Assembly: GCA_964410485.1 (NCBI GenBank)
Contig: CAYPHJ010000002.1
Span: forward strand, 1,311 to 65,310
Length of the DNA stretch: 64,000 nt
Reading direction: 5' to 3'
From: an uncultured Syntrophobacteraceae bacterium
Lineage (GTDB): Bacteria > Desulfobacterota > Binatia > UBA9968
In this document: in pieces, positions 8,432 to 44,996 of the stretch
Numbering within the stretch: position 1 is the first letter of the stretch
Layout of the letters: every line of letters begins with the position of its first letter
The notes under the pieces: model-generated
Database searches by the model: none
The model's input: the letters and a program-made list of their open reading frames with translations, nothing else
Told to the model about the DNA's origin: nothing
Program-made: the position numbers and the translations under genes

Positions 8432-9460
8432 ATGGCTGTAATTGATGCCGATGCCCATGTGTTAGAGACAGAGCGGAGCTGGGCGTACATGCTCGACTCG
8501 GAGCGAGCCTACAGGCCGCGTGTCGTGCCCACGCCGGACAACGATAGCTCGGGCGGTGAATCCTGGTTCGTGGACGGTACCTATATAGGCAAAGCGCGCA
8601 ACGTTGGTCTTGAGACGCCCAGAGAGTCCAGAGAGATGGACGATATCCAGGCGCGGCTGAAGCATATGGATGAATTGGAAGTGGACGTGCAGGTCCTCTA
8701 CCCGACGATCTTCTTGCGCCCCTTCACCCGCAAGCCGGCAGTCGAGCTCGCCCTGACACGGAGCTACAATCGTTGGCTCATCGATATCTGGAAATCGGCC
8801 CCGCGTCGCTTGCGGTGGGTAGCCGTTCTGCCATTGTTGTCGATGGAGAAAGCACTGGAGGAAGCTCGCTTTGCACGGGAAAACGGCGCGTGCGGCATCT
8901 TCATGCGGGGTCTGGAGGGGGACAAGCGTCTTAGTGATCCCCATTTTTTTCCGCTATATGAAGAAGCGGCGCGCCTCGACATACCGATCTGCGTCCATTC
9001 AGCCACGGGAAGTTTTGCGCTGCACGATTTTTTTGCCAACGAGTGCGGGTTTGCAAAATTCAAGCTGGCCGTGGTGGCTTCTTTCCACGATCTCCTCTTC
9101 AGTAAAGTTCCGTCCAAATTTCCCAGGACGCGTTTTGCTTTCATCGAAGTCAGCTCGCAGTGGGTTCCCTACGCGCTCCACGATTTTTTTCGGCGCTTCC
9201 AGCGTCGCGGTGAGACGGTGGAACAGAAGAACGTGCTGCGCGACAACCGGATCTACGTCGCATGCCAGACCGATGATGATCTTTCATACGTGCTCGGGTA
9301 TTCGGGAGAGGATCAGCTGGTGATCGGCACGGATTACGGCCACAACGACACGTCTTCGGAAATCACCGCACTGCGCAAGCTCAAAGAAGATGGGTCGGTC
9401 GCGCCGCGAGTGGTTCAAAAGATCCTGGATGACAACGCAAGGCGATTGTACGCGATTTAA
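8432..9460 (+). CDS. Amidohydrolase-2 family metal-dependent hydrolase/decarboxylase
   Basis: 342 aa. It has an N-terminal 'IDADAHV' metal-ligand motif and a C-terminal 'GTDYGHND', typical of the ACMSD/amidohydrolase_2 family. Confidence 0.8.
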   Translation: MAVIDADAHVLETERSWAYMLDSERAYRPRVVPTPDNDSSGGESWFVDGTYIGKARNVGLETPRESREMDDIQARLKHMDELEVDVQVLYPTIFLRPFTRKPAVELALTRSYNRWLIDIWKSAPRRLRWVAVLPLLSMEKALEEARFARENGACGIFMRGLEGDKRLSDPHFFPLYEEAARLDIPICVHSATGSFALHDFFANECGFAKFKLAVVASFHDLLFSKVPSKFPRTRFAFIEVSSQWVPYALHDFFRRFQRRGETVEQKNVLRDNRIYVACQTDDDLSYVLGYSGEDQLVIGTDYGHNDTSSEITALRKLKEDGSVAPRVVQKILDDNARRLYAI

Positions 9461-9606: not shown

Positions 9607-10632
9607 ATGGTGATAGACTTTCAGGCGCACGTATTTCCCGAAACATATATTGACGAGATGAAACGCCTGGACGGCGCAGTGGTTCTGGAACCGCCCGATC
9701 CGCACAGCGGCATGCAGTATTTTTACGACAAGAAGCTCGGGTGCCGCATCAATACGGCGACCTTTCAGGGACGCGACCTGGAGCGTCGCATCGAACATAT
9801 GGACCGGCTCGGCATCGATGTGCACGTGCTGACGATTCCTGCGCCGGGGGCGGATCGATTCGACGGTCAAGATGCCGTTCGGATTGCGCAAACGGCCAAT
9901 AACGCCATCGCCAGCATCTGCCGTAAGCATCCGCAACGTTTCGTCGGGTTTTTCACGCTGCCAACCGCCTCCGTAGAGGCCTCTTTGGAGGAGCTGGAAC
10001 GAGCAGTCAATGAATTGGGTTTGAAAGGATTTGGTTGTTTTTCGAATCTTAACGGCCAAGGGCTGGACCGCGAAGGGCTATTTCCGATCTATGAGCGATT
10101 GGCCAAGCACAAGTTGCCGGTCTATATCCATCCCACCGCGCCGCTCGCCAGCGAAGCGACACGGATCGACATCATGCCGACTTTGATCTTCGGCTGGGCA
10201 TTTGACAGTACGGTAGCCATGACGCGATTGGTTTACGGTAGAGTCCTGGAGCGATTTCCCGAAATCAACTTCGTTGTCGCCGATGTCGGTGGCGTGCTCG
10301 CCTTCTTTGCCCAACGCGCGGCCAATATCTATACCGGGCGTACCGAAGAAATCCGCCAGCGCTACGGTCTCAAGGAGAATCCGCTAGATTCGTTCAAACG
10401 GTTTTTCGTCGATACCGCCGACCATCCTTCGTCAACCTTGCGCTGTGTAAAGGAGTTCTTCGGCGTAGAGCGGCTTGTGCTGGGCACAAACTATCCCTAC
10501 GGACCAGAGGAGGGCTGTGTGCTGGTGAAAAACAGTTTGAAAGCAATTGAGGAGCTGGGCTTGAATCAGGAAGAAAGAAACAAGATCCTGGGCGGCAACG
10601 CAGCCGAGATTCTTGGGTTGGGAGGGTCATGA
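9607..10632 (+). CDS. Amidohydrolase-2 family protein (paralogue of 8432..9460)
   Basis: 341 aa. It carries 'VIDFQAHVFP' and 'LGTNYPYG' motifs. Confidence 0.8.
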   Translation: MVIDFQAHVFPETYIDEMKRLDGAVVLEPPDPHSGMQYFYDKKLGCRINTATFQGRDLERRIEHMDRLGIDVHVLTIPAPGADRFDGQDAVRIAQTANNAIASICRKHPQRFVGFFTLPTASVEASLEELERAVNELGLKGFGCFSNLNGQGLDREGLFPIYERLAKHKLPVYIHPTAPLASEATRIDIMPTLIFGWAFDSTVAMTRLVYGRVLERFPEINFVVADVGGVLAFFAQRAANIYTGRTEEIRQRYGLKENPLDSFKRFFVDTADHPSSTLRCVKEFFGVERLVLGTNYPYGPEEGCVLVKNSLKAIEELGLNQEERNKILGGNAAEILGLGGS

Positions 10633-12230: not shown

Positions 12231-12351
12231 GCGCTGTCGCGCTCGACGACCGAAGACCGACGCCGCCGCTCGGATCATGGTACGGAAAATTAGGACGATT
12301 CTCTTCTAGGATGTTGTCGGAGCATTTTGTTGGCACCGCCGGTGCCGTTTT

Positions 12352-12439
12352 GTCATTCTCGCGCAGGCGGGAATCCAGATTTTCCGCGTCTCTCCTGGAT
12401 CGGGGCTCTCGCGTGCGTCCGCCCGCTCGGCTGGATGAC
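12352..12439. repeat. MITE-like palindromic element, GTCATTC...GGAATCCAG type
   Basis: The left arm is GTCATTCTCGCGCAGGCGGGAATCCAG. The right arm's reverse complement is GTCATCCAGCCGAGCGGGCGGACGC...GATCCAGG. Confidence 0.7.
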
Positions 12440-23848: not shown

Positions 23849-23941
23849 GTCATCCTGAGCGGCAGCGAAGGATCTGGTTTTCCCGTTGCTTGAAGCCCGG
23901 CCCAAAAGCAGATTCTTCGTCACGGTGTTCCTCAGGATCAC
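23849..23941. mobile_element. MITE-like element with inverted termini GTCATCCTGAGC..GAAGGATCTG / CAGATTCTTCG..CTCAGGATCAC
   Basis: Both arms were read directly and are separated by a spacer of about 32 nt. It lies in the 406-bp gap upstream of ccmA. Confidence 0.75.
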
Positions 23942-24135
23942 ACAGCAGGAATACACTCTGCGAGACCGTCACGATAACTCCAAATCGGACGCAACAGATG
24001 CGGTCAAGAGTGCTGGGGTGGTATACCCAAACACCATCTCCTGCCGTGACGCTGACCGCAAAATGCAAGTTGACATTTTCGGCTTGCCTCCCCTATGTAG
24101 TAGGGTCATAACATTACCGGTCCAGGGGAGGAACT

Positions 24136-28620: not shown

Positions 28621-28700
28621 CCGACTAGCATCGTCAGGAGTTTTGTAGGAGGGCATTTCGACTCGCGATTGTAAGACTAATCAACGAGCGCATACGATTA

Positions 28701-28778
28701 CACCACGAAGGACGCGAAGGACACGAAGGTTCGGAAAATTACTTTCTTGAATCTCCTAACTTCGTGACCTTCGTGGTT
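28701..28778. repeat. Unit-array hairpin, CACGAAGG family (copy A1)
   Basis: CACCACGAAGGA CGCGAAGGA CACGAAGGT, an A/T-rich loop, then AACTTCGTGACCTTCGTGG. It lies in the 182-nt sucC-sucD spacer. Confidence 0.9.
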
Positions 28779-28802
28779 AACTCCACTGTTTCTGCTTTTG
28801 AT

Positions 28803-29678: not shown

Positions 29679-30106
29679 GCTTGGAGAGGACATTATCGAT
29701 GATCAAACCGGATGCCGTGGAGCGCCGGTTAATTGGTGAGATTCTGAAGCGTTTCGAGGCCGCGGGCCTGAAAATCGCTGCGGCCAAATTGGTCCGTCTA
29801 ACGCCGGAAAGTGCCCAGGCCTTCTACGCAGTCCACAAGGAACGACCGTTCTTCGCGAGTCTTTGCGCATACATGTCGTCGGGACCGATTTTCGTTTCGG
29901 TGCTGGAAGGGGAGAACGCCATTGCGAAAAATCGCGAGATCATGGGCGCCACGGATCCTGCGAAGGCGGCAGTCGGAACCATACGCAAGGACTGCGGCCA
30001 AGACGTGGAGAAAAATGCCGTCCACGGCTCGGACAGCAATGAAACCGCGGCAACCGAGATTGCCTTCTTTTTCAAACCCACCGAAGTTTTTTCGTCAGCG
30101 GGATAG
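29675..30106 (+). CDS. ndk: Nucleoside-diphosphate kinase
   Basis: 143 aa with '[12 protein letters not shown]' and the 'NAVHGSDS' active-site His. Confidence 0.96.
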
Positions 30107-30126
30107 TTAGATTGTCTTGCCCGCTG

Positions 30127-31389
30127 ATGGCCAACGCGTGGCCTGTGAAATTGAACATCAAAGATTTAAGTCTGACGGAATTTGAAACTTATTTGACGGA
30201 ACATGGCCAACCGGCTTACCGCGCCAGGCAAGTGTGGCAGTGGTTGTACCAAAAGCAGGCAACTTCCTTTGCCGCAATGACCAATCTTTCCGCCTCGCTA
30301 CGTTCTCAGCTGGATCGCGATTTCACGATGAGCGGGCTTTCGTTGGCGCGCAAATCGGAGTCGAGCGATGGCACCGTAAAGTTTCTCTTTACCCTGGATG
30401 ATGACAAGACTATCGAAAGCGTGCTGATTCCGGAAACCAAGCGTCTCACGCTTTGTATTTCGACCCAAGCCGGGTGTGGGTTCGGCTGCGCCTTTTGCGC
30501 CACGGCGTTGTTGGGGTTAGAGCGCAACCTGCGCGCAAGTGAAATCATCGACCAAGTACTCGAAGTCAGTCGAACACTAGACCCTCACCCCTCCCTCTCC
30601 CAAAGGGAGAGGGTGGCAGCGAACGATGAAACACCATCCCCACCGCACAAGCGAGCTCTGGATTCCCGTCAAAAACACCCGGGAATGACGTACGGAGAAA
30701 GGCTGGAACAACCCTCTTTTGCCCTCTCCCTTCCAGGGAGAGGGAGGGGTGAGGGTTCGCCAAGTAGGATAACCCATGTCGTGCTCATGGGCATGGGTGA
30801 GCCGCTCGCCAATTACGGACAAACCTTGAAGGCGTTGGAAGTGCTTAGCGAGCCCAGTTGGGGCATTGGCATTTCGCCTCGAAGGATCACCTTGTCCACC
30901 GTCGGCTTGATTCCTCAAATGGAGAAGCTGATGGCAGAGACGCGCGTGAATCTTGCTGTTTCGTTACACGCCCCCAACGAAGCGCTGCGCAGCCGGCTGA
31001 TGCCCGTCAACCGGAAGTATTCGCTTAAGAAGCTCATGGAGGCCTGCCGTTCTCTGCCCATTCCGCGCCGCAAAAGGATCACGTTTGAATATGTGTTGCT
31101 GCGGGGCATAAACGATTCAGAGGAACATGCAGCAGAGCTCTGCAAGCTTCTTAAAGGCATTCGCTCTAAAGTGAATGTGATTCCTTTCAACCCGCATCCC
31201 GGCAGTAGCTTTCAACGACCGAAAGATACGGAAATAGAACGCTTTCAACAGGTCCTGCAATCTCAGGGCGTTCAAGTCAACGTACGCCGTCCGAGGGGCG
31301 ACGACATCCAGGCCGCCTGTGGGCAGCTGCAAGGAGAGGAGTCTCGGCCGCGGCGCAACTCTCTTGCCGTATTGACCGAGGCGCAATAA
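30127..31389 (+). CDS. rlmN: 23S rRNA/tRNA adenine-C2 methyltransferase RlmN (radical SAM) carrying an in-frame repeat-derived insertion
   Basis: It has the radical-SAM cluster motif 'GCGFGCAFCAT', 'HVVLMGMGEPLAN' and 'CGQL'. An alternative TTG start lies at 30112. About 55-58 extra residues sit between 'ASEIIDQVLEV' and 'ITHVVLMGMGEPL'. Confidence 0.9.
   Translation: MANAWPVKLNIKDLSLTEFETYLTEHGQPAYRARQVWQWLYQKQATSFAAMTNLSASLRSQLDRDFTMSGLSLARKSESSDGTVKFLFTLDDDKTIESVLIPETKRLTLCISTQAGCGFGCAFCATALLGLERNLRASEIIDQVLEVSRTLDPHPSLSQRERVAANDETPSPPHKRALDSRQKHPGMTYGERLEQPSFALSLPGRGRGEGSPSRITHVVLMGMGEPLANYGQTLKALEVLSEPSWGIGISPRRITLSTVGLIPQMEKLMAETRVNLAVSLHAPNEALRSRLMPVNRKYSLKKLMEACRSLPIPRRKRITFEYVLLRGINDSEEHAAELCKLLKGIRSKVNVIPFNPHPGSSFQRPKDTEIERFQQVLQSQGVQVNVRRPRGDDIQAACGQLQGEESRPRRNSLAVLTEAQ
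30581..30755. mobile_element. 175-bp composite palindromic element embedded in-frame in rlmN
   Basis: The termini are ACCCTCACCCCTCCCTCTCCC-AAA-GGGAGAGGG (30581..30613) and CCCTCTCCC-TTCCA-GGGAGAGGGAGGGGTGAGGGT (30722..30755). These are 21-nt perfect inverted repeats, each with its own hairpin. The interior holds CTGGATTCCCG..CCCGGGAATGAC (30658..30689), the reverse complement of the GTCATTC...GGAATCCAG module seen at 12352. Confidence 0.8.
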
Positions 31390-31395
31390 GCATCG

Positions 31396-32259
31396 ATGCG
31401 CAAAAGCATTCTTGGGGTCATTGGCGGCAGCGGGTTGTACCAGATGGAGGGTTTGGAAAAGGTACGCGAGGTGGGGGTCACGACTCCCTTCGGCAAGCCC
31501 TCGGACAAGCTCATCAAGGGATGGCTGGGAAAAACGGAGTTGCTGTTCCTGCCACGCCATGGCCGGGGCCACCGCCTGTTGCCAACCGAAATAAATTTTC
31601 GGGCAAACATTTTTGCCATGAAAAAGCTTGGCGTTGAGCGGCTCATTTCCGTCAGCGCTGTTGGCAGCTTGCGCGCGGAGATCGAACCGGGGCACATCGT
31701 CGTGCCGCATCAGTTTATTGACCGTACGACGCAACGCGCCAGCAGTTTTTTCGGCAGAGGAATCGTGGCGCACGTTAGTCTGGCAGATCCCTTTTGTAGC
31801 GAGTTTACGCGGCTACTCGCCCAGGCCGCAACGCAAGAAGGCGCCCCCGCGGTTCATGGGGAGGGAACTTACTTGTGCATGGAGGGGCCGCAGTTTTCAA
31901 CCCGAGCGGAATCAAATTTGTACCGAACTTGGGGAGCGGACGTTATCGGAATGACCAATCTTCAGGAGGCGAAACTGGCGCGCGAAGCGGAGATTTGTTT
32001 TGGCACGTTGGCGCTGGCCACGGACTATGACTGCTGGAATCAAGCCGCGGGGGACGTGGAAATTGAACACGTTCTGGCAGTACTCAAACAAAACGCGGAC
32101 CTGGCGCAACGGACGATCCGGCGGGTTGCCATGGCGCTGGGTGAGGCGCGTTCCTGCGCCTGTGCCTCTGCCTTAAAGGATGCTATTATTACCGACAGAT
32201 CGCGCATCCCGAGAAAGATCAGAAGCGATCTGCGACCAATCATCGGGAAGTACCTATGA
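31396..32259 (+). CDS. mtnP: S-methyl-5'-thioadenosine phosphorylase
   Basis: 287 aa with 'LGVIGGSGLY', 'FLPRHGRGH' and 'GMTNLQEAKLAREAEICF'. Confidence 0.92.
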   Translation: MRKSILGVIGGSGLYQMEGLEKVREVGVTTPFGKPSDKLIKGWLGKTELLFLPRHGRGHRLLPTEINFRANIFAMKKLGVERLISVSAVGSLRAEIEPGHIVVPHQFIDRTTQRASSFFGRGIVAHVSLADPFCSEFTRLLAQAATQEGAPAVHGEGTYLCMEGPQFSTRAESNLYRTWGADVIGMTNLQEAKLAREAEICFGTLALATDYDCWNQAAGDVEIEHVLAVLKQNADLAQRTIRRVAMALGEARSCACASALKDAIITDRSRIPRKIRSDLRPIIGKYL

Positions 32260-33161: not shown

Positions 33162-33233
33162 CCCTCTAGCAATGCTGGCACGAACCTGCCTCGAACGCAT
33201 GGGCTTATGCTCGCTCGTAGAGAATGAAACCTG

Positions 33234-33266
33234 CCCTCACCCTCGCCCTCTCCCGGAGGGAGAGCG
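33234..33266. repeat. Solo hairpin of the CCCTCACCC..CCCTCTCCC-GGGAGAG family
   Basis: CCCTCACCCTCGCCCTCTCCCGGAGGGAGAGCG has the same module as the termini of the rlmN insertion. Confidence 0.8.
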
Positions 33267-33396
33267 AATCGCGGAACAAGCAAACCTTTCATGCAAGCCG
33301 GCCGTCCTTGGCGATTTCAACCAATCGGATGGTTTTCTTATCCTCGCCCTTTGGCAGGGAGGAACGCGTGAACAACCTCGTTCCGGCTACCATGTA

Positions 33397-33420
33397 GGGG
33401 CAGACCTGTGTGTCTGCCCC
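33397..33420. repeat. GGGGCAGAC...GTCTGCCCC hairpin repeat
   Basis: GGGGCAGACCTGTGTGTCTGCCCC forms a 9-bp stem (GGGGCAGAC / GTCTGCCCC) around a 6-nt loop. A related hairpin lies at 45839..45861. Confidence 0.75.
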
Positions 33421-33548
33421 AAGCGACAACGCAGGGCCGGCCGCACACATTCCCGATACCGAATCCCGTTCGTGAGGGTAAATCTTCCAAAAGCGCGGGA
33501 GTGGCGCGTGTTAGTAGTCAGAGAAGCTCTAGCTGAAGGAGAAGGGGC

Positions 33549-39907: not shown

Positions 39908-40016
39908 GGGCCGGCATATGCTTCGTGGCCGTTGTACCACTATGTTCGAGACTTTTCGCGGCGCGCGTAATCAGTTGTACGTTGTAACGTCCTGAGTTGG
40001 TAAGCAAATACCATTG

Positions 40017-40084
40017 CACCACGAAGGACGTGAAGAATACGAAGTTCGGATAAGGGGTTCGAAAAAACCTTTCTTCCTTCGTGC
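40017..40084. repeat. Unit-array hairpin, CACGAAGG family (copy A2)
   Basis: CACCACGAAGGA CGTGAAGAA TACGAAGTT, a loop, then CCTTCGTGC. Confidence 0.85.
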
Positions 40085-40099
40085 TCCCCTAAACCCCAA

Positions 40100-40200
40100 C
40101 TGTCATTCTGAGGAGCGCTGCGACGAAGAATCTGTCTTTTTCTTCCAGACGGAACAAGAACCATAAAAAGCAGATCCCTCACTTCCGTTCGGGATGACAG
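40100..40200. mobile_element. MITE-like element, GTCATTCTGAGG..GAAGAATCTG / CAGATCCCTC..GGGATGACAG
   Basis: The inverted termini were read directly. It belongs to the same family as 23849..23941. Confidence 0.75.
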
Positions 40201-44806: not shown

Positions 44807-44909
44807 CAATGGACACGTAGGCGGCAACGGCGCGAACAAGTCCGAAACGGGGACCTTACCACTGAGATCCTAGCGCGGCAGAGCCGCAACCCAAGAGGAA
44901 AGAACACGT

Positions 44910-44996
44910 CACCACGAAGGCCACGAAGAGCGCGAAGAAAGAAATTTGTTTTTATAACTCCTTTCCGAACTTCGTGACCTTCGTGTGCTTCGTGGT
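44910..44996. repeat. Unit-array hairpin, CACGAAGG family (copy A3)
   Basis: CACCACGAAGGC CACGAAGAG CGCGAAGAA, an A/T-rich loop, then AACTTCGTGACCTTCGTG TGCTTCGTGGT. It shares the 18-mer AACTTCGTGACCTTCGTG with A1. Confidence 0.9.

Follow-up and report, generated by a model that had tools for sequence, protein, structure and literature searches.

A 64,000-nt stretch of contig CAYPHJ010000002.1 from an uncultured Syntrophobacteraceae bacterium (GTDB lineage Binatia), referred to here as the window, contains the gene rlmN, which encodes a radical S-adenosylmethionine (SAM) methyltransferase, and inside this gene's open reading frame (ORF) lies a palindrome of 176 nt. The ends of the palindrome are an inverted pair of repeats of the BoxC/PIT/TM_ECO family, and its core resembles a second kind of repeat, the NTS or Ssn-related motif (SRM). 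Our current working interpretation, to which we assign as a whole a probability of roughly 0.68, is that this DNA is a translated passenger, tolerated in the protein and not removed from the gene product, which entered rlmN once, long ago, and has since been exchanged by recombination and remodelled. What is new here is not a class of element; it is the finding of known 'intergenic' repeats inside a gene, most likely translated, at a recombining and hypervariable site.

Anatomy and family identity of the palindrome

The features of the window on which the argument turns are the following.

12351–12378, + strand: intergenic NTS/SRM-like hairpin, TGTCATTCTCGCGCAGGCGGGAATCCAG (consensus from PMC11893778)
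30112–31389, + strand: rlmN, 23S rRNA/tRNA adenine-C2 radical-SAM methyltransferase, ORF of 425 aa
30581–30613, − strand: left BoxC/TM-type module, ACCCTCACCC-CT-CCCTCTCCC-AAA-GGGAGAGGG, which is the three-block triplex motif in reverse complement (PMC4666352)
30583–30765, + strand: inserted coding segment of 61 codons (aa 158–218, PHPSLSQRERV...GRGRGEGSPS), where empty alleles have 3 codons (GGC GAG CGG, 'GER')
30614–30721, no strand: central 108-nt spacer, the only part of which with a relative elsewhere is the nested hairpin
30658–30690, − strand: nested NTS/SRM-like hairpin, CGTCATTCCCG-(11-nt loop)-CGGGAATCCAG on that strand
30722–30756, + strand: right BoxC/TM-type module, CCCTCTCCC-TTCCA-GGGAGAGGG-AG-GGGTGAGGG-T
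33234–33266, − strand: intergenic BoxC/TM copy, CCCTCACCC-TCG-CCCTCTCCC-GGA-GGGAGAGCG

The palindrome extends from 30581 to 30756, with perfect 21-nt inverted arms (left, ACCCTCACCCCTCCCTCTCCC, 30581–30601; right, GGGAGAGGGAGGGGTGAGGGT, 30736–30756) separated by 134 nt; no perfect inverted repeat of 21 nt is expected (100 shuffles). Both arms bear a CCCTCTCCC/GGGAGAGGG hairpin of their own (30593–30613 and 30722–30744), the loop being AAA on the left (CCCTCTCCC-AAA-GGGAGAGGG) and TTCCA on the right (CCCTCTCCC-TTCCA-GGGAGAGGG), and CCCTCTCCC occurs five times in the window against an expectation of 0.47. A 186-nt stretch is far more stable than its shuffles whether it is folded as RNA (−96.4 kcal/mol, z = −8.0) or as DNA (−48 kcal/mol, z = −6.9). 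A first-pass annotation, made from the letters of the window, had described an ORF that stays open through an element at 30581–30755 with perfect 21-nt termini, each with a hairpin; the open frame, the left end, the arms and both hairpins stand, and the right end is moved by one nucleotide. It had further equated the interior module with the reverse complement of a repeat at 12352, which is true of the arms (CTGGATTCCCG-11 nt-CGGGAATGAC at 30658–30689 on the + strand, against the GTCATTCTCGCGCAGGCGGGAATCCAG arms at 12352–12378) but not of the loops, and it had placed another copy of the terminal module at 33234, where we find a related module. Its proposal that the extra DNA is built, in frame, from two families of repeats otherwise found between genes is thus borne out. 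In blastn against all fetched loci, the central spacer matched only itself.

The published TM_ECO/BoxC pattern is 5'-CCCTCNCCC N3-6 GGGNGAGGG N3 GGGNGAGGG-3', with one mismatch allowed (Holder et al., 2015, Nucleic Acids Research, PMC4666352), a report that we located by full-text search with G-rich repeat strings; a similar literature search for GCGGGAATCCAG returned nothing informative. On sequence grounds, the ends of the element belong to this family. Both contain the motif's three blocks, CCCTCNCCC-loop-GGGNGAGGG-loop-GGGNGAGGG, with a first loop of 5 nt (right) or 3 nt (left), and the right module is near-identical, TTCCA loop included, to copy 12 of Escherichia coli K-12, CCCTCTCCCTTCCAGGGAGAGGGTCGGGGTGAGGGT (Table 1, PMC4666352), while the intergenic copy at 33234–33266 fits the strict pattern with one mismatch. 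A blastn search with the element found matches in 4420 of 5426 complete E. coli genomes (80–95% identity, query positions 134–181), at a median of three places per genome and with no annotated feature beneath any among the matches listed. The family shares with the window element its inverted ('palindromic') pairs, local indels, degenerate variants and want of a known mobilizing enzyme. In E. coli K-12 there are 23 copies, with inverted pairs at five sites, and the published census comprises 3610 copies in 262 proteobacterial genomes (PMC4666352). The E. coli copies are reported to be always intergenic, however, whereas the two copies in rlmN are intragenic and in an open frame, the host belongs to the Binatia, and the pair encloses a 108-nt spacer with a second repeat family. 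The triplex for which the motif is named has been formed in vitro only (PMC4666352), and another description treats these E. coli sequences as a putative G-quadruplex-hairpin switch (bioRxiv 10.1101/032615).

The NTS/SRM consensus is CGTCATTCCCGCGMAVGCGGGAATCYRG, a motif described as intergenic and as the target of SsnA GIY-YIG single-stranded-DNA nucleases (PMC11893778). The copy at 12351–12378 fits it with two mismatches. The hairpin inside rlmN shares with that copy the oriented arms CGTCATTCCCG...CGGGAATCCAG, both of which are kept, but its 11-nt loop is enlarged and unlike the consensus, and it lies within a gene; judged by its sequence, it resembles a degenerate NTS/SRM. No ssnA-like or GIY-YIG gene, a kind of gene that the motif often flanks, was seen in the 64-kb window by a crude tblastn search with a YhbQ probe and a regular-expression screen. 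In two relatives, NTS-like hairpins lie directly upstream of rlmN (L009, 62–146, an inverted pair; L090, 574–602; L numbers denote fetched DNA loci and P numbers protein homologues).

The insert in the predicted RlmN protein

The identity of the gene is clear. Solved RlmN structures in the PDB match the window protein with E = 3e-86, Pfam finds RlmN_N and Radical_SAM, and the CxxxCxxC cysteines, the methyl-transfer residues C115 and C403 and the SAM-binding motif are invariant in the RlmN alignment. The best homologue in protein and genome collections is 72% identical, and the gene order sucD-ndk-rlmN-MTAP-pfkB is conserved. The listed ORF begins at TTG 30112; the real start is probably GTG 30145 (V12), because relatives begin with 'MKPNIKDL' at the aligned position. 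Many relatives have a C-terminal RlmN extension ('..GEQGTKDEGGRRKDEIHPSSFILHP' or '..SSETVSSERWRAGATPHSSPLTPH'; P0010, P0011, P0038, P0065, P0103 and others; L083, 11094–11152) that overlaps the start of the next gene and appears to be repeat-derived, and the stop codon seems to have been displaced by another repeat.

Alignment with orthologues, a check that the first-pass annotation had suggested, delimits the insertion: 61 codons replace three, a net gain of 58 aa (174 nt) over empty-site Binatia orthologues, and window residues 155–217 stand opposite just 6–9 residues in solved RlmN structures. The insert has no stop in the frame used, and one and two stops in the other frames. It falls in the α1–β2 loop, helix α1 being the one that comes after CxxxCxxC and strand β2 the one with GMGEP. 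In an AlphaFold model, the predicted local distance difference test score (pLDDT) averages 81 and is below 50 over residues 159–212, between helix 142–156 and strand 222–228; the rest of the model superposes on the RlmN crystal structures 6fz6, 5hr7 and 3rfa (TM-score 0.86–0.92, Foldseek). The model thus predicts that the roughly 58 added residues, among which Pro, Gly, Arg, Glu and Ser abound, form a disordered loop. In the partial TIM barrel of radical-SAM enzymes the α1-to-β2 loop sits opposite the active-site face, and by analogy with that topology the insert would face away from the active site. The insert is most likely translated with rlmN, to judge from its reading frame, because each of the 12 alleles available as DNA has a length divisible by three and no stop in the frame used. 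That it is tolerated as a passenger would follow from a disordered loop that spares the radical-SAM core, and of the fates that had been considered for it earlier, a tolerated surface loop is the most likely.

Alleles, recombination and copies elsewhere

Two collections bear on the distribution of the insert. In a genome scan with one genome per species, mostly titled as metagenome-assembled genomes of Binatia or Deltaproteobacteria, about 30 of the closest loci are empty, with a constant interval of 52 residues from CxxxCxxC to GMGEP ('..SRTLDGERRITHV..'), and extra residues occur there in only two loci besides the window. Among the 120 best-scoring protein homologues, 28 have inserts at the same site, the few named ones being Candidatus Binatia. 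Their lengths, of which there are 17, include 9, 10, 11, 16, 20, 24, 30, 32, 33, 37, 38, 46, 52, 63 and 71 aa, against 58 aa in the window; all 28 are open, and in the 12 DNA alleles the unused frames often contain stops. Four blocks make up the simple palindrome of the commonest allele, of 20 aa ('PHPSLSLEGRGQGRGISYGA'), and in the 30-aa alleles a tandem duplication of 30 nt is added. The nearest relatives of the window allele (L087, L086 and L001) have the same two-module inverted build with different spacers, and in L084 (63 aa) and L085 (71 aa) a second element with perfect 17-nt inverted ends, GAGACTGTGTCGCAATT, lies in or beside the loop. In L082 an unrelated 33-aa repeat stands at the same point, and an intergenic relative of that repeat is present in L084. 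The higher local indel variability reported near BoxC/TM_ECO motifs among E. coli strains (PMC4666352) has its counterpart here in alleles of 0, 20, 30 and 33 aa among genes that are 95–98% identical. The site in rlmN is a hypervariable indel spot, and the segments that orthologues carry there do resemble intergenic repeats.

The second element was located at 10460–10609 in L084 and at 1048–1222 in L085, which has a further 30-nt addition, and a 29-nt piece of it recurs in L122. In certain empty alleles (L081, L004) the site bears a small palindrome, CGCTCG-ACGN-CGAGCG; as this hairpin is lacking in L021 and L036, the idea that it served as a target was set aside.

Further copies of the termini, which the first-pass annotation had predicted, exist not only at 33234 and in E. 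coli. Metagenome contigs scanned for exact matches to CCCTCACCC-N2-3-CCCTCTCCC gave at least 120 loci with 157 copies, 127 of them complete three-block motifs, in DNA of 32–75% GC; none of these loci is rlmN. Seventeen pairs in the order + then − comprise 13 composites of 82–379 nt and four simple hairpins of 46–50 nt. Several composites of 82–184 nt share the build of the window element (outer CCCTCACCC/GGGTGAGGG, two inner hairpins and a variable spacer), and one is exactly 176 nt long. Some copies lie inside other protein genes, in L179 apparently so.

L133, 3819–6854, − strand: valyl-tRNA synthetase (ValRS) with an in-frame BoxC/TM doublet, 43 aa against 4 in Thermus thermophilus ValRS (1GAX)
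L191, 3959–7012, − strand: second ValRS, with an in-frame BoxC/TM copy at another site
L123, 3496–5745, − strand: MutL, with an in-frame BoxC/TM copy in the interdomain linker
L179, 744–3125, − strand: HemN-like radical-SAM ORF with two inverted BoxC/TM copies about 786 nt apart

Between the two copies in L179 runs a stop-free stretch of some 270 aa, which contains internal duplications and is placed between the helix of the cluster motif and the 'GGGTPS' strand, at the α1–β2 position as in RlmN; judging from the ORF, this stretch apparently lies within the HemN-like coding sequence. The in-frame copies in ValRS and MutL argue that translation of such repeats would not be unique to rlmN. Repeats hitherto described as strictly intergenic thus lie in frame in rlmN, valS, mutL and, apparently, a HemN-like gene.

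Both arms of the window element have 'CT' as the spacer that separates CCCTCACCC from CCCTCTCCC, as do the rlmN alleles of L003, L083, L084, L088 and L211; among the 157 metagenome copies just one has it, and the intergenic copies in Binatia (window, 33234; L003, near 2040) have 'TCG'. In addition, over about 560 nt downstream of the site no base differs between L211 (30-aa insert) and L081 (empty); just upstream of it they show 6, 13 and 9 differences per 60 nt, and it is there that L211 agrees with L003, a more distant allele. This mosaic indicates a short homologous-recombination patch that carried the insert. Between L082 and L081, on the other hand, the flanks are unchanged, which indicates that a true indel of a different repeat took place locally, so that the site is subject to both processes. 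Together, the rare shared spacer and the L211 patch favour a single old insertion that was exchanged between lineages. The interior of the window element may also have been turned around. Its right module (30722–30756, reverse complement) matches the left module of L003 (362–399) at 37 of 38 positions, with loops TGGAA and TTGAA, and the canonical left module of other alleles is closer to the window right module than to the window left module with its AAA loop; because of this resemblance, recombination between the arms is suggested to have flipped the interior.

We propose that a BoxC-type copy, CCCTCTCCC-loop-GGGAGAGGG-N2-GGGTGAGGG, most likely entered rlmN once, in an ancestor within the Binatia, and that it would have been passed on both vertically and by short homologous-recombination patches between lineages. 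Tandem duplication, nested insertion of hairpin repeats into the loop, partial deletion and loss would have remodelled it. Length variants may arise by slippage and repair errors driven by the potential of the DNA for non-B structures (hairpin, triplex or G-quadruplex), as has been proposed for E. coli (PMC4666352), and selection would remove those that break the frame, leaving in-frame, stop-free versions that are presumably translated in vivo and roughly neutral.

Several observations weigh against this proposal. In a neighbour-joining tree of RlmN with the insert masked, insert-bearing proteins form four groups that are monophyletic in none of 100 bootstraps, a result that requires either many losses with recombination or several gains, although a single-gene tree subject to recombination cannot settle monophyly. 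The second loop of the rlmN copies has 2 nt (AG/CT), against 3 nt in the strict TM_ECO pattern. The argument for translation is drawn from frame conservation, which was partly ascertained through protein searches. Finally, the repeat blocks of the window and L003 are identical at 37 of 38 and 21 of 21 positions, whereas the flanks show 70% nucleotide and 46% third-position identity; conservation above that of synonymous sites could mean constraint at the level of the nucleic acid rather than neutrality. The same constancy of the blocks is found in intergenic copies from E. coli to Binatia, however, which makes it a property of the family and not evidence of a gene-specific function.

Alternative explanations, related systems and other repeats

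The first-pass annotation had ascribed to the insert the anatomy of a miniature mobile element, and one alternative is accordingly an active non-autonomous transposable element, either a miniature inverted-repeat transposable element (MITE) or a doublet of the REPIN type, formed of repetitive extragenic palindromes (REPs). A transposase acting in trans, whether a REP-associated tyrosine transposase (RAYT)/IS200-like protein or another single-stranded-DNA enzyme, would repeatedly have targeted the site, perhaps by way of the hairpin in empty alleles. Perfect terminal inverted repeats, the REPIN-like build of two inverted hairpins and a spacer, and a dispersed family with many doublets speak for it, as do the small palindrome of some empty alleles and, in L082, a different repeat of 33 aa at the exact site while the background is otherwise unaltered, a repeat of which L084 has an intergenic relative. 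The lack of a target-site duplication weighs against this reading, although it is compatible with HUH/Y1 single-stranded-DNA transposition, and neither a target-site duplication nor a conserved flanking target was found at 17 other copies from the metagenome sample. The GTAG or CGTC tag is absent from the window element and from those 17 copies, and crude probes revealed neither a RAYT nor a GIY-YIG gene in the window. The termini are those of a family with no known mobilizing enzyme and no association with transposons, phages or plasmids (PMC4666352), its density is low (three copies in the 64-kb window), and the contrast between the rare 'CT' spacer in rlmN and 'TCG' in intergenic copies argues against repeated arrivals from a general pool. 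One presence/absence difference is, moreover, accounted for by the recombination patch in L211, and unrelated GTAG-type REPs flank the sole RAYT-like gene that the roughly 2 Mb of fetched DNA yielded. We consider transposition unlikely, and to call the insert a mobile element would be premature.

A broader conjecture, which we offer as quite unlikely, is that genic BoxC/TM repeats are kept by selection on the nucleic acid. The rlmN palindrome would then be dual-coding, its arms held complementary by conversion within the palindrome, and would act as a structural signal in mRNA or DNA or as an RGG-like RNA-contact loop; constancy across phyla would reflect a conserved protein partner that also copies the repeat.

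Exaptation in rlmN itself, as a Gly/Arg-rich (RGG-like) loop that contacts RNA, as a nucleic-acid signal within the gene (an mRNA hairpin or G-quadruplex, for instance) by which translation or stability is adjusted, or as a DNA structure used in recombination, appears very unlikely. It is favoured by repeat blocks that vary less than the synonymous sites of this highly conserved gene, by the perfectly complementary 21-nt arms of the window element with their matching spacers, by the persistence of the insert across lineages whose rlmN third-codon identity is only some 45–50%, by a highly stable RNA structure and by a G-rich arm that fits the G-quadruplex motif described for E. coli copies. Set against this are presence/absence and length polymorphism of 0–71 aa among close relatives, the empty sites in about 30 of the closest genome-scan loci, the family-wide nature of the block conservation, the disorder predicted by the model, and the lack of promoter and terminator activity of PIT elements in E. 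coli (PMC4666352). Removal of the insert as an intron, an intein or by translational bypass, which had been raised earlier, and a chimeric assembly are scarcely credible, even though the hairpin is very strong and palindromes can give assembly errors: a removed segment need not keep all its alleles in frame and free of stops, Rfam finds no family in 30000–31500 (one chance match, 19 bits against a gathering score of 40) and Pfam no domain and no Hint/intein in the 71-aa insert segment, 176 nt is too small for a group I or II intron, and the same architecture recurs in independent assemblies from NCBI, JGI, ENA and Logan.

Among known systems, the closest case in behaviour is, by analogy, that of the Rickettsia palindromic elements, which, as described by Ogata et al. 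(2000) and summarized in PMC10969869, are palindromic repeats of about 100–150 bp, in frame in unrelated housekeeping genes and translated at fold-tolerant sites. The rlmN insert is likewise a palindromic repeat, in frame, in a conserved gene and at a structurally tolerant site, and the analogy is a functional one only: the Rickettsia family is probably unrelated in sequence, to judge from composition and host, whereas the host of the window is G/C-rich and free-living, its repeats are low in copy number, and a single site has a long allele series spread by recombination. Long perfect inverted repeats in protein genes with both arms translated are also known from nematomorph mitochondria (PMC6649704); these differ in being mitochondrial and eukaryotic, in their unrelated sequences and in affecting many genes per genome.

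REPINs consist of two short imperfect palindromes, inverted around a spacer, that form one long hairpin (Bertels & Rainey, 2011, PMC3116915), and REPs are tagged with GTAG/CGTC (PMC3733652); REP-RAYT systems are further marked by a RAYT gene with the repeats on its flanks and by extragenic copies in the hundreds. The window element has the inverted doublet around a spacer, but it differs in having no such tag and no RAYT found next to its repeats, in its low density and in its intragenic position. A tblastn search of about 2 Mb of fetched DNA with a crude E. coli RayT probe, for which the absence of a hit is weak evidence, found no RAYT linked to BoxC/TM and a single hit, in L110. There (8700–9400) the RAYT-like gene is flanked by GTAG-type REPs (CTGTAGGAGCGGCCCATGGCCGCGATAA) and the same contig carries BoxC/TM copies, so that two repeat systems coexist unlinked. 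The hallmarks of a MITE are terminal inverted repeats, a target-site duplication and a cognate insertion sequence with the same ends; the 21-nt perfect repeats are present, but no flanking direct repeat was found in the window or at other loci and no cognate insertion sequence was seen. The BoxC/PIT/TM repeats themselves have been known since the 1990s, and we know of no established origin, spreading mechanism or function for them.

The site in rlmN offers a natural setting in which to test indel instability driven by repeats and to follow how disordered loops arise in proteins, as selection for an open frame records each event there. Such inserts also split BLAST alignments and inflate the apparent divergence of marker genes in metagenome-assembled genomes.

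Other short palindromic repeats were noted in the window. Intergenic hairpin families of the forms CACCACGAAGGAC..CTTCGTGG, TGTCATTCTGAGGAGCG..GAAGAATCTG and GCAGATCCCTCACTTCCGTTCGGGATGACA are present (28687–28780, 40003–40090 and 44896–44996; also 40101–40134 / 23904–23942 and 40166–40200), and the genome to which the window belongs has several such families. Between pfkB and the UDP-glucose dehydrogenase gene, about 390 nt (33162–33548) without GT2 similarity contain the intergenic BoxC/TM copy, at a place where all relatives have a gene for a GT2 glycosyltransferase of 317 aa; a GT2 gene has thus been lost at a repeat site.

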